Below the pieces are notes generated by a model that did not search any database, was not told the DNA's origin, and worked only from the letters and a program-made list of their open reading frames with translations. A DNA stretch of 64,000 bases, taken from NCBI GenBank assembly GCA_017434985.1, contig JAFSFY010000039.1, positions 36,849-100,848 on the forward strand, given 5' to 3'. Made by a program: the position numbers and the translations under genes. Shown here one piece after another: positions 36,325-64,000 of the stretch. Position 1 is the stretch's first letter; each line of letters begins with the position of its first letter. The stretch comes from Clostridia bacterium. GTDB taxonomy: Bacteria; Bacillota; Clostridia; Oscillospirales; Acutalibacteraceae.

Positions 36325-36531
36325 GTATTGTGTTGCCCCGCTCTGCCGTAATGTTTCTCGGGATAACCTGCTACTATCGTTAGCAGGTGGGTGCCCACCG
36401 TGCGGTTTCGCGCTCCCTTCGTCCCACGAGGTGGGGAGGTCTGCAAACCTGCCGCTCGAGCAGGGCTCCCTTCGTCAAAATGTAGTAGGGTTATAGAGAA
36501 ACGGTCCGCGCACAGAGCAGGGGAGAAACCG

Positions 36532-36843
36532 TTATTCTGCCGGCTGTTCCAGCTCTTCGATCTCGTACAGATCTTGGAGACGTTCTTCGAAGATCTCGGC
36601 GATCTCCTCAAACTCGTCGTCATCGTCAATGGTGACCATGATGTCTTCGCCGTCTTCCTCTTTCACGGCAAGGATCACGAGTTCCCCGTCGCCGTCCAGC
36701 AGATCGGCGGGGTTTTCGTAAACGGGAAGAAGGGCCACGTAGCGGCCGTCGTCCGTCTCGATGGCATCCACGATCTCAAATTGATGTTCCGCACCTTCAT
36801 CGTCCACAACCGTGACGATGTCATTTCCAAATTCTTCAGACAT
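36532..36843 (-). CDS. DUF1292-family small acidic protein (YrzB-like)
   Basis: IVTVVDDEGAEHQFEIVDAIETDDGRYVALLPVYENPADLLDGDGELVILAVKEEDGEDIMVTIDDDDEFEEIAEIFEERL is the characteristic DUF1292 pattern. Confidence 0.8.
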   Translation of the reverse strand: MSEEFGNDIVTVVDDEGAEHQFEIVDAIETDDGRYVALLPVYENPADLLDGDGELVILAVKEEDGEDIMVTIDDDDEFEEIAEIFEERLQDLYEIEELEQPAE

Positions 36844-36969
36844 AGCAATTCTCCGTTCTTATTATATCAAGTGGTATCTATTATGATACTCATTTTTCGC
36901 ATTTCCGTCAAGAGGAAACTTTTGTTCAACAAAATAAATAAAAAGTTTCAACTTTTTTTAAAAAAACTA

Positions 36970-36998
36970 TTGACTTTTAATAAAACGTATGCTATATT
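36970..36998 (+). promoter_or_regulatory. Strong sigmaA-type promoter TTGACT-N17-TATATT
   Basis: Seen directly. Drives the noncoding leader upstream of the TauE/SafE genes. Confidence 0.55.
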
Positions 36999-37004
36999 GT
37001 AGAT

Positions 37005-37375
37005 GACAAAAGGAGAGAACAACCAGAAAGGGTGAGTCCGGTGAACTAAGCAGAGTCAACCTGAGAGAAAGAGAGGTATGACCCATGGCTTGTAGAAGGA
37101 AACAACTCAAAATCTCTTCTGTAAAAATCTAAAGGAAAAAGGTGAATCCAATGGGCCGTTAACTTGACCCCACGGACATTTGAATAGACAAAATTAATAT
37201 ATAAAAATCATTGTAAAGGGTTGAAACCCATGTACTAAGTTGCCCTTTTAATAAGGACAAGTCAAGAAACTTTGAAAGGAAGTTTGGGTTCCGCGAGGCC
37301 GCGGACGAGTCAATAATCTCAATATAACCATCAGAGAGGAGACATTGCGAATAAAAATGTCTCCTCTTTTGTTTA
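37005..37375 (+). ncRNA. Candidate cis-regulatory leader or small RNA (about 370 nt, AT-rich, no credible ORF) ending in an intrinsic terminator
   Basis: Promoter at 36970-36998, terminator hairpin at 37336-37366 plus T-run. Only 3-10 codon ORFs on the plus strand. Several internal hairpins (GGGTT-gaa-AACCC, TCCGCG-aggc-CGCGGA). Confidence 0.35.
37336..37375 (+). terminator. Intrinsic terminator or attenuator immediately upstream of the TauE/SafE RBS
   Basis: gaggagacatt-gcgaataaaa-atgtctcctc followed by TTTTGTTT. Confidence 0.6.
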
Positions 37376-37434
37376 TCCGTATGAGTGAAAGAGCCCGTTG
37401 TCGAACACACTAACCGAAAAGGGGAGTGTGTGGT

Positions 37435-37803
37435 ATGACAAATGCGCAAAACCGATGGCGCTATGCGGTCATCGGGGCGTTGGCGGGTGTGGCCAACGGG
37501 TTGTTCGGATCGGGCGGCGGTTTGTTTTTGGTGCCGCTGTTCATCTCGTGGATCCGTATGGATGAAAAAAAGGCGTTTGCCACCTCGGTGGCGGTCATCT
37601 TTCCGTTGTCGATCGTTGCCTTTACGGTTTTTGCCTTGCGCGGCGGCGTGGAGTTTTCACTTGCGTGGCCGTACGTGATCGGCGGTGCCGTCGGCGGTCT
37701 GCTTTCCGGCACGTTGTTTAAGCGCGTGTCGGCCAAATGGCTGCATCGCCTGTTCGGCGCTTTGCTGCTGTACGGCGGCGTAAAGGCGGTGTTTCTGCTG
37801 TGA
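37435..37803 (+). CDS. TauE/SafE (TSUP) family transporter, N-terminal 4-TM half
   Basis: GALAGVANGLFGSGGGLFLVPLF motif. RBS AAAGGGGAG. Confidence 0.75.
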   Translation: MTNAQNRWRYAVIGALAGVANGLFGSGGGLFLVPLFISWIRMDEKKAFATSVAVIFPLSIVAFTVFALRGGVEFSLAWPYVIGGAVGGLLSGTLFKRVSAKWLHRLFGALLLYGGVKAVFLL

Positions 37804-38183
37804 CGTGGCTGGGAATAGCGGTCGGCATTGCAACCGGTATCATCAGCGGCTTCGGCGTTGGCGGCGGCTCGCTGTTGGTGCTGTATTTGACCGCCGTGAC
37901 GGGGATGGCGCAATACGATGCCTCCGGTATCAATCTGCTCTATTTTTTGTTTTGCGCACCGGCGGCATTGGTGTCGCATATACGCCACAAACGGGTCGAA
38001 TGGCAGGCCGTGATATGGTGCGTGGCGGCAGGTGTCGTCACGTCGGTGGCCGCGGCATTTCTCGCTTCGTATATGCAGGACGGCTGGTTACGGCGCCTGT
38101 TTGGCGGATTGCTTTTGTATATCGGTGTCCGCGAATTGTTTTTCGGCAAGAAAACGGACGAAAAATTCGAAAAAAAGTCATAA
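37800..38183 (+). CDS. TauE/SafE (TSUP) family transporter, C-terminal 4-TM half
   Basis: GIISGFGVGGGSLLVLYL motif. GTG start overlaps the upstream TGA (GTGA), indicating translational coupling. Confidence 0.7.
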   Translation: MTWLGIAVGIATGIISGFGVGGGSLLVLYLTAVTGMAQYDASGINLLYFLFCAPAALVSHIRHKRVEWQAVIWCVAAGVVTSVAAAFLASYMQDGWLRRLFGGLLLYIGVRELFFGKKTDEKFEKKS

Positions 38184-38281
38184 AAATTTCAAATAAATTC
38201 CTCGGTTTTGGTTGCAATTAAACGCAAGATATAGTAAAATATAAAAAACACATTGCAAGATGATGGAGGAATACACGGTTT

Positions 38282-63823: not shown

Positions 63824-64000
63824 GCAAACTGCCGTTTGCAGTGATATTTTTGCTCAAAGGCAAAAGTGATATAAAAGCCTACGGCTTTTGTGATATTATA
63901 TTCGCCATAAAACTCGGCGTAGCCGAATATCACACGGCATAGCCGTATATCACTGCGGAGCAATATCACTCGCCGATAGGCGAATATAACTGAGGCGCAC
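63824..64000. repeat. Array of 7-bp GTGATAT motifs (three direct copies at ~63841, 63867, 63891, then three or four inverted copies ATATCAC at ~63926, 63946, 63963, degenerate at 63983) plus palindrome TGCAAAC-N5-GTTTGCA: iteron/operator-like array truncated by the window end
   Basis: Seen directly. Copies are spaced 17-26 bp apart, the orientation switches at the midpoint, and the region is AT-rich. Confidence 0.4.

Follow-up and report, generated by a model that had tools for sequence, protein, structure and literature searches.

An AT-rich interval of about 370 nucleotides (nt) lies directly upstream of two TSUP (TauE/SafE family) genes in a contig of an uncultured Clostridia bacterium (Acutalibacteraceae; JAFSFY010000039.1). 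The stretch of DNA analysed, which we refer to as the window, is 64,000 nt long. An earlier note had singled out this interval, between a promoter and a terminator, as a noncoding transcript and a candidate new riboswitch, leader or small RNA, to be checked by a covariance search of Rfam and by conservation and covariation in homologues. We find that the flagged stretch is a genuine, selected RNA element outside Rfam. It carries a conserved short open reading frame (sORF) and three still shorter frames (mini-ORFs), all predicted to be translated, and we tentatively interpret it as a ribosome-sensed leader of the TSUP genes.

The locus and its homologues

The features of the locus are listed in Table 1. 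Homologous loci were obtained from the contigs of the closest TSUP homologues and then by using pgi, the next gene downstream of the TSUP pair, as an anchor. Ten distinct versions of the intergenic region resulted: the window, L004, L010, L005 (= L006–L009), L011, L018 (= L020), L013, L014, L021 and L047. All ten, from related uncultured Clostridia, have the same layout, in which a DUF1292 gene reads leftward, a gap of 550–630 nt carries the RNA, and TSUP-TSUP-pgi follow, so that the RNA is directly upstream of the TSUP pair in every version.

Measured between the inferred 5′ end and the start codon of TSUP, identity of the RNA to that of the window is 64–86%; at four-fold sites it is 45–68% for pgi and the first TSUP gene and, from a small sample, 26–74% for DUF1292. 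Long stretches of the RNA are invariant in the alignments, and the RNA is far more conserved than neutral sites. The conservation in homologues for which the earlier note had asked is thus present in 10/10 versions.

At L046, where pgi is 84% identical, neither the TSUP genes nor the RNA lie upstream of pgi. More distant TSUP homologues (66–67% identity; L001, L015–L017) are in other contexts, with short upstream regions that contain no related sequence. A search of genome contigs with the first TSUP protein returned three loci, of which two are clear TSUP matches without a homologous leader (L001, L003), the upstream region of the third (L002) being examined by nhmmer only. With the RNA as query, nhmmer gave a single copy per locus and no paralogue in the whole window and in all loci. 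A metagenome scan with the invariant block B gave 0 matches, and two scans of viral contigs and a BLASTN search against plasmids and phages gave none.

Table 1. Features in and around the RNA. Positions are those of the window; SD, Shine-Dalgarno sequence; dG, folding free energy
Feature	Position	Strand	Description	Conservation or basis
6S RNA (RF00013)	36331–36526	minus	Directly downstream of the DUF1292 gene	Rfam, 52 bits
DUF1292 gene	36532–36843	minus	Divergent, upstream of the RNA	
Promoter	36970–36998	+	-35 TTGACT 36970–36975, 17-nt spacer, extended -10 TGCTATATT 36990–36998	10/12 matches, TG before -10
RNA 5′ end (predicted)	37005–37019	+	GACAAAAGGAGAGAA, an SD-like purine tract not followed by a start codon; 5′ strand of P1	Near-invariant in 10 sequences
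Helix P1	37011–37016/37113–37118	+	AGGAGA with UCUCUU, inside sORF codons 10–11	98% of cells paired
Mini-ORF A	37027–37049	+	SD AAAGGGTGA 37027–37035, GTG 37041–37043, AAC, TAA 37047–37049	Kept in 10/10
Variable spacer	37050–37067	+	Species-specific hairpins (GAGGC-GG-CCUC in L014; AAAGGC-CG-CCUUU in L021)	Read from alignments; weak in the window
sORF	37068–37132	+	SD GAGAGG 37071–37076; ATG 37085 to TAA 37130–37132; encodes MACRRKQLKISSVKI	10/10 sequences
Mini-ORF B	37140–37162	+	SD AGGTGA 37140–37145, then ATG GGC CGT TAA 37151–37162	AGGTGAATCCAATGGGCC invariant in 10 sequences
Conserved UUGACCCCA	37164–37172	+	Complementary to UGGG 37285–37288 and GUCAA 37309–37313, which flank hairpin D	
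AT-rich linker	37173–37212	+	Poorly conserved, variable length	Alignments
Mini-ORF C	37215–37238	+	SD AAAGGGTTGA 37215–37224, then ATG TAC TAA 37230–37238	Kept in 9/10
Hairpin E	37244–37256	+	CCUU-UUAAU-AAGG	Hairpin of different sequence at the same place in relatives, read from the sequences
Block D	37279–37314	+	GGAAGUUUGGGUU, hairpin UCCGCG-AGGC-CGCGGA 37290–37305, then CGAGUCAAU	Alignment and pair count
Intrinsic terminator	37333–37375	+	14-bp stem, SD-like 5′ arm, anti-SD-like 3′ arm UGUCUCCUCUUUU, then U-tract	Folding and pair count
TSUP SD hairpin	37406–37412/37424–37430	+	ACACACU/AGUGUGU around the SD of the first TSUP gene, ending 4 nt 5′ of the ATG	dG -16.4 kcal/mol, z -4.3
First TSUP gene	37435–37803	+	Half-size, 122 aa	Pfam PF01925, E 3.5e-23, profile positions 123–236
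Second TSUP gene	37800–38183	+	Half-size, 127 aa	Pfam PF01925, E 2.9e-19, profile positions 2–107

The transcript and the TSUP genes

The near-consensus promoter described in the earlier note, TTGACT-N17-TATATT, is confirmed; together with the A-tract upstream of its -35 box and the TG before its -10 box, it is kept at 10/10 homologous loci. The transcription start, at about 37005, is inferred from the position of the -10 box. No further sigma-70-like site was found by a consensus scan of the plus strand from 36998 to 38212, which includes the interval between the terminator and the TSUP genes. The AT-rich character noted for the ~370-nt transcript is also borne out, the GC content being 0.30–0.41 over 36800–37400 and 0.55–0.60 in the flanks.

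The strong terminator that had been placed before the first TSUP gene is equally clear. It consists of a perfect 12-nt inverted repeat (37335–37346/37356–37367), which gives a 14-bp stem followed by UUUUGUUU (dG -20.2 kcal/mol, z -5.6), and it is located ~65 nt upstream of the TSUP start codon. Counted over the homologues, it is 95% paired, with compensatory changes in 7/13 pairs; its U-tract is weaker in L013, L021 and L047. The consensus terminator scanner skipped it, because its loop of 9 nt exceeds the scanner's limit of 8. An 18-codon ORF inside the terminator (start 37357) was rejected, as it shows no conservation outside the hairpin.

Beyond the terminator, a second hairpin encloses the Shine-Dalgarno sequence (SD) of the first TSUP gene. 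Its CACACU box is invariant in 9/10 sequences, and in L013 and L018 the GTG start codon lies within its 3′ arm. This arrangement suggests a separate layer of control at translation.

The description of the downstream gene as a split TauE/SafE exporter is misleading: there are two intact half-size TSUP genes, the start of the second overlapping the stop of the first (GTGA). At E<=1e-10, 1097 homologues of the first TSUP protein were found, and the best 120 of these are nearly all 117–146 aa long; the half-size pair is therefore a common, normal architecture and not a broken gene. We note that the order of the pair is "permuted" with respect to the Pfam TauE model (profile positions in Table 1).

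In the region between the divergent DUF1292 and RNA promoters (36912–36969) there are two conserved AAA(C/G)TTT boxes (36916–36922 and 36942–36948) in addition to the A-tract before the -35 box. These may represent an operator or UP element common to both promoters; the central C/G of the boxes flips between species, and there is no consistent palindrome. On the far side, the pairing of DUF1292 with 6S RNA was seen again in L013, L014, L018 and L021.

A conserved 15-codon reading frame

The earlier note reported no ORF longer than 10 codons, which is incorrect: the ATG at 37085 opens a conserved 15-codon ORF that has a good SD and is under protein-level selection. The frame is found in 10/10 sequences with a length of 12–17 codons, and the duplex of its SD with the anti-SD (taken as the canonical sequence in all such calculations here) has an energy of -9.3 to -14.0 kcal/mol. 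The peptide has the conserved form M-x-C-[KR]-R-[IVK]-[VQ]-L-[KT]-I-S, followed by a variable tail.

The decisive sequence for a coding test is that of L047, the most divergent homologue. Over codons 2–11, all comparisons with L047 give values of 0.84–1.29 for synonymous differences (pS) and of 0.18–0.41 for nonsynonymous differences (pN), and thus a pN/pS of ~0.2–0.3; pS exceeds pN in nearly all other pairs as well. The nature of the changes can be seen by comparing L047 (GTG ATC TGT AAG AGA GTT GTG TTA ACG ATT TCC AAT..., encoding MICKRVVLTISN...) with L013 (ATG ACT TGT AAG AGG ATC GTA CTC AAA ATC TCC AGT..., encoding MTCKRIVLKISS...). The synonymous changes include Leu CTC to TTA, Val GTA to GTG, Ile ATC to ATT and Arg AGG to AGA, and the start changes from ATG to GTG. 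In an RNAcode-like scan of the three plus-strand frames the sORF ranks first, with a score of 69.6 against 51.8 for the next distinct region. On these substitution patterns, the sORF is coding and under purifying selection at the protein level.

A 96-aa ORF on the minus strand (37159–37449) was also considered and rejected, since its stop-free runs shift in frame and length even among close relatives; such runs arise because the minus strand is pyrimidine-rich.

An array of mini-ORFs

Four conserved blocks of the RNA share one form, consisting of an SD of the AAAGG(G)TGA type, a spacer of ~5 nt, a start codon and an early stop. One is the sORF; the other three, mini-ORFs A, B and C, have the anatomy of a bar-like minigene, in which a strong SD and a start codon are followed by one or two sense codons before the stop. 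Mini-ORF A starts with GTG, or with ATG in L011 and L018; its sense codon is AAC or TAC and its stop TAA, or TGA in L047. In mini-ORF B the third codon is CGT, CGC or CAC and the stop TAA or TGA. Mini-ORF C has lost its start in L018 only; its sense codon is TAC or CAC, its stop TAA or TGA, and in L013 it extends to 5 codons. Across the mini-ORFs, starts vary only between GTG and ATG, and stops only between TAA and TGA.

The duplex energies at the four sites are between -6 and -15 kcal/mol (-11.6 to -14.9 kcal/mol for mini-ORF A), comparable in strength with the TSUP gene's own SD at -11.4 to -13 kcal/mol, and the SDs look like those of ordinary genes in the window. The RNA of the window contains 8 sites combining an SD and a start, against 2.3 +/- 1.5 in dinucleotide shuffles, where 8 was reached in 2/500. 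The joint chance of stops so early at three sites is ~0.004. The mini-ORF ribosome-binding sites are thus genuine-looking, and translation is predicted. With the conserved sORF in addition, the word noncoding does not suit this stretch. Neither the remainder of the 64-kb window nor any other locus that was fetched contains the SD motif, apart from L036, which is discussed below.

In mini-ORFs A and C the one sense codon is NAC in every case (AAC, TAC, CAC); in mini-ORF B the codon that varies is CGY or CAC. Queuosine-modified tRNAs read NAC codons; the pattern may be meaningful, or may just reflect a conserved ACUAAG motif. We looked for a context that would support a link to queuosine and found none, and the idea was dropped.

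RNA structure

As a whole, the RNA does not fold with unusual stability (z -1.84). A helix search over all sequences, combined with a count of pairs, supports three helices: the terminator, hairpin D and P1. Covariation, which the earlier note had proposed as a check, is seen for only these three in a set of 10 sequences, few of which are divergent.

P1 joins the 5′ end of the RNA (GGAGA, 37012–37016) to codons of the sORF (UCUCU, 37113–37117). It has one compensatory change (GGAAA:UUUCC in L047), which is synonymous in the sORF. It is present in the alifold consensus, and also in the single-sequence minimum free energy fold of domain I in every species, where GAC:GUC or GACAA:UUGUC often lengthens it. 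Hairpin D is 100% paired, with compensatory changes in 3/6 pairs (L013, L014, L018, L047). A three-way junction could arise from the conserved UUGACCCCA together with the sequences on either side of hairpin D; 82–84% of cells are paired in this arrangement, there is no informative covariation, and L018 has a mismatch.

Hairpin E has counterparts of different sequence in relatives (UUCGG..CCGAA in L013, UCGG..CCGA in L021, UUCGAU..AUCGAA in L014 and UUGCAAC..GUUGCAA in L047), which MAFFT left unaligned and which were recognised by reading, with no formal pair count. A further hairpin predicted in the window, AAACUU/AAGUUU (37267–37285), is broken in L005 and L010 and was rejected. Most of the conserved sequence in the RNA consists of SDs, starts and stops or of coding sequence.

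Search for known RNA families

The Rfam search that the earlier note had asked for agrees with its view that no known family is present. At the gathering threshold, the matches in the window are 6S RNA, two tRNAs and Gut-1, all elsewhere; in sensitive mode (E<=10) the region 36800–37500 gave 8 matches at chance level, all with E>1, and nothing was found at the RNA in four homologues (L013, L014, L018 and L021). ARAGORN found no tRNA or tmRNA. The two tRNA genes (RF00005; 52394–52477 and 52536–52623, plus strand) are unrelated to the RNA, and Gut-1 (RF01706, 60 bits; 63922–63992, minus strand) belongs to an orphan small RNA family of gut metagenomes, in keeping with an origin in gut or rumen Clostridia.

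No T-box family is among the 8 matches listed at E<=10, and the downstream genes are unrelated to aminoacyl-tRNA. A CsrB/RsmZ-type protein sponge was rejected, since GGA motifs are not enriched (8 against 7.0 +/- 2.1 in shuffles). The ykkC/guanidine-I scaffold, including subtype 2d, gave no match at E<=10 in the window or the four homologues; the 8-mer GGGUUCCG at 37286–37293, which is similar to the start of the ykkC consensus, is the sole resemblance. The statement in the earlier note that TauE/SafE exporters are not associated with a riboswitch class is not quite right, in that orphan ykkC subtype 2d candidates have been reported upstream of TauE/EamA transporters (PMC7266159).

A proposed ribosome-sensed attenuator

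We propose, tentatively and at a little less than an even chance, that the region is the 5′ leader of the TSUP-pair mRNA and acts as a ribosome-sensed transcription attenuator, not as a metabolite riboswitch. As in leader-peptide attenuators, there is a short ORF with an SD in the leader, kept in 10/10 sequences, and an intrinsic terminator between this ORF and a gene with no detectable promoter. Of the earlier suggestion of a new riboswitch, leader or small RNA, the leader position and the attenuator geometry (a promoter, ~370 nt, a terminator, and TSUP genes without their own promoter) hold up, and a noncoding metabolite riboswitch or T-box is disfavoured by the sORF and mini-ORFs.

In the mechanism that we envisage, ribosomes translating or stalling on the sORF would melt P1, and ribosomes on the other SD sites would help to decide which purine-rich segment is free. 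The free segment, either the 5′ end or the SD of the sORF, would compete with the 5′ arm of the terminator for its 3′ arm. Since ribosomes would decide which competitor is free, their occupancy would set the ratio of the terminated ~370-nt RNA to read-through TSUP mRNA, and the second conserved hairpin, over the TSUP SD, would add control at the level of translation. Because the sequence of the sORF peptide is conserved, the nascent chain probably matters; by analogy, it might be an arrest-type peptide, possibly acting with a small-molecule effector.

The energies of the competing pairings are consistent with such a scheme. Pairing of the 5′ end with the terminator's 3′ arm is predicted at -9.7 to -14.7 kcal/mol in 9/10 sequences, and that of the sORF SD at -12 to -17 kcal/mol in 6/10. 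In most species the best partners of this arm upstream include one or other of the two, and at least one is strong in all but L047.

Several points weigh against this proposal. No antiterminator helix has covariation support; the purine–pyrimidine pairings are generic, and they fail in some species (-6.4 kcal/mol for the 5′ end in L047, -6.0 kcal/mol for the sORF SD in L021). The sORF is ~200 nt upstream of the terminator, which is far for a classical leader-peptide attenuator. Since the pairings are generic and lack clean covariation and the sORF is so distant, the antiterminator switch is something that we infer. There is no run of regulatory codons: the sORF peptide and its relatives have one Cys codon and no codon run such as those of amino-acid-sensing leaders of the trp/his/phe type. 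The A-to-G changes in starts and stops are transitions that also keep pairing with U, and are suggestive of translation at most. All the homologues come from one narrow clade of uncultured Clostridia, giving 10 distinct sequences of which two are near-identical. A very strong promoter and a strong terminator would also suit an abundant stand-alone RNA. Finally, one distant RNA with the same mini-ORF motif, that of L036, ends at a terminator that faces a convergent gene, and it therefore cannot be a leader.

If the proposal is correct, the RNA would be a new and unusually elaborate ribosome-sensing leader, combining an arrest-type peptide with an array of two- and three-codon ORFs. It would do so in gut or rumen Clostridia, in which almost no cis-regulatory RNA has been studied, and upstream of TSUP genes, whose substrates and regulation are largely unknown. 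It also provides a concrete and testable case of conserved minigenes of the form start, one codon, stop, which are usually regarded as curiosities.

Alternative explanations

The main rival explanation is that the region is a stand-alone small RNA gene, a messenger for a micro-peptide of 12–17 residues, or an RNA with both functions, in which the terminated ~370-nt transcript or the peptide is the product. The mini-ORFs and the 5′-proximal SD would then load ribosomes and stabilise or tune the RNA, and TSUP would use leaky read-through. We regard this as possible, though on balance rather unlikely. It would account for the RNA having a strong conserved promoter of its own (with its A-tract and extended -10) and its own strong terminator, as well as for the protein-level selection on the sORF peptide. 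Attenuator RNAs that act in trans after termination, and leader peptides that do so, are described in the case of rnTrpL/peTrpL, as outlined in PMC7298713.

The comparison with L036 bears on this explanation from both sides. A relaxed scan of JGI metagenomes for two copies of the motif gave 24 loci, of which 23 are repeats in coding sequence, leaving only L036 as relevant. The L036 RNA (minus strand, ~2895–2430) has a consensus TTGACA-17-TATAAT promoter, ~420 nt of AT-rich sequence and an intrinsic terminator. It is built from a tandemly duplicated unit of ~163 nt that contains GGCGTGATTCCAATGAAGTAAG, GGTGAGTCCGATGTAC..., the 9-codon sORF MIVRIFAIK (and hence two copies of it) and GGGTGAATCCAATGTTCTAAG, with mini-ORFs of the form SD-N5-ATG-one codon-TAAG. 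The RNA has an ispH-rpsA fusion gene as its convergent neighbour and an ABC exporter as its divergent one, and in Rfam it has only sub-threshold matches, driven by the terminator. With a convergent gene behind it, this RNA has no downstream target, and if L036 is indeed a relative, being a TSUP leader is not intrinsic to the family. The matches do run past the positions forced by the search pattern (e.g., ..CTAAG after the codon); however, L036 is related through short motifs only, and the nhmmer similarity is weak (E 0.02).

At the TSUP loci themselves, the evidence points away from an independent gene. In each of the clade's ten genomes the TSUP pair follows the RNA directly, TSUP has no detectable promoter, and the sequence past the terminator (the CACACU box and the TSUP SD hairpin) is conserved along with the RNA. 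The U-tract is weak in several species, so that read-through looks built in, and a peptide of 12–17 residues would be very small to have a function of its own.

An extension of this comparison, which we consider improbable, is that the present RNA and that of L036 are the first members of a new class of "minigene-array" RNAs. These could be either leaders or stand-alone transcripts, with three to seven units (extended SD, start, one codon, stop) arranged around a conserved micro-peptide ORF of 9–17 residues. If so, such RNAs would capture ribosomes, or specific tRNAs as dipeptidyl-tRNA, and would thereby read out or modulate translation capacity; the anti-SD-like arm of the terminator would be an internal mimic of the 3′ end of 16S rRNA.

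It is less probable still that the RNA is a metabolite- or ion-binding riboswitch, in which blocks B, C and D would fold as an aptamer, the variable hairpins would be peripheral and a ligand would control the terminator. The attenuator geometry is as expected for one, and the RNA alternates between strongly conserved unpaired blocks and hairpins whose sequence varies (E, D and the spacer after A), a pattern typical of riboswitches. An orphan riboswitch candidate, ykkC subtype 2d, is known to target TauE-type transporters, and a three-way junction is possible between 37164–37172 and the flanks of hairpin D; that junction, however, has no covariation and is mismatched in L018. Further, there is no Rfam match even at E<=10 here or in the homologues, the overall fold is not unusually stable, and the consensus fold of domain I is almost without covariation besides P1, although only 10 sequences, few of them divergent, were available. 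In addition, the conserved blocks coincide with SDs, starts and stops, and one of them is demonstrably coding. A leader that is AT-rich, has attenuator geometry and is taken for noncoding can be densely translated, so calling a riboswitch by default is unwise for such regions.

Finally, control by an RNA-binding protein that would promote or prevent termination by binding three or four AAAGG(G)UGAAUCC repeats, in the manner of TRAP, PyrR or HutP, would explain a near-invariant motif that occurs 3–4 times at a spacing of ~45–110 nt and nowhere else in the window, but we think it very unlikely, because the gaps between repeats far exceed those that multi-site attenuation proteins are known to require, a protein site leaves unexplained the start codon at a fixed 5 nt and the early stop after each repeat, and no candidate regulator gene is linked across the loci.

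Comparison with known systems

In Firmicutes, ribosome-mediated attenuation by leader ORFs is described for bmrCD of Bacillus subtilis, with its bmrB leader (PMC4191407), and for mef/mel (PMC4335068). In outline, these reports describe a short translated ORF in a long leader, an intrinsic terminator before a transporter operon, and a ribosome whose position is proposed to choose the RNA fold, as we propose for the ribosome-sensed leader of the TSUP pair. As described there, induction is by an antibiotic and the leader ORF overlaps with the alternative structures that adjoin the terminator, whereas in the present RNA the sORF is ~200 nt upstream, there are three extra ORFs of 2–3 codons, and the antiterminator is only a candidate.

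Two leader peptides are present in ermA and ermB (PMC8274638). The cat-86 leader peptide is MVKTDKISS. Like the erm and cat leaders, the RNA has several small leader ORFs, each with an SD; SD-like and anti-SD-like segments pair, and the downstream SD is in a hairpin. The leader peptide, too, ends in ...KISS, because the anti-SD-like AUCUCC tract is read in frame. It differs in that the hairpin over the TSUP SD is not paired with a leader ORF, being a local hairpin whose 5′ arm is downstream of the terminator and outside any leader ORF. In addition, there is a full intrinsic terminator, and the downstream genes are not resistance genes.

The mgtCBR and mgtA leaders of Salmonella contain two sORFs (mgtM/mgtP) or mgtL, respectively, in a leader of ~300 nt. 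The resemblance is in a long leader before a membrane-transport operon, in the presence of more than one tiny ORF, and, as proposed for the TSUP leader, in translation setting elongation into the coding region. The mgt leaders belong to another phylum, sense proline-tRNA or ATP through codon content, work through Rho or alternative stem-loops, and share no sequence similarity with the present RNA.

Two-codon minigenes occur in the LEE1 leader of Escherichia coli (PMC3262186) and in axe-txe (PMC8708949), where, according to the summaries given in these papers, they modulate the expression of neighbouring genes. The mini-ORFs share the anatomy given above with those minigenes and with the bar minigenes of phage lambda. 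Set against what is described for bar, LEE1 and axe-txe, the present case has three units in one RNA, beside a longer conserved sORF and kept across species.

STAB-SD elements, as in cryIIIA of Bacillus thuringiensis, are stabilisers at the 5′ end of mRNA. An SD-like AAAGGAGAG with no start codon behind it is similarly found near the 5′ end here; it differs in being also one strand of helix P1, and by analogy a stabilising role is putative.

Candidates of ykkC subtype 2d are likewise located upstream of TauE/SafE-type transporters (PMC7266159), but their size and architecture are different, and the leader here carries predicted translated ORFs and gives no ykkC match. The RNA belongs to no Rfam family and is not a T-box, ykkC or CsrB-type RNA. 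By analogy, it would work most like the ribosome-mediated attenuators and the erm and mgt leaders with their multiple leader peptides.

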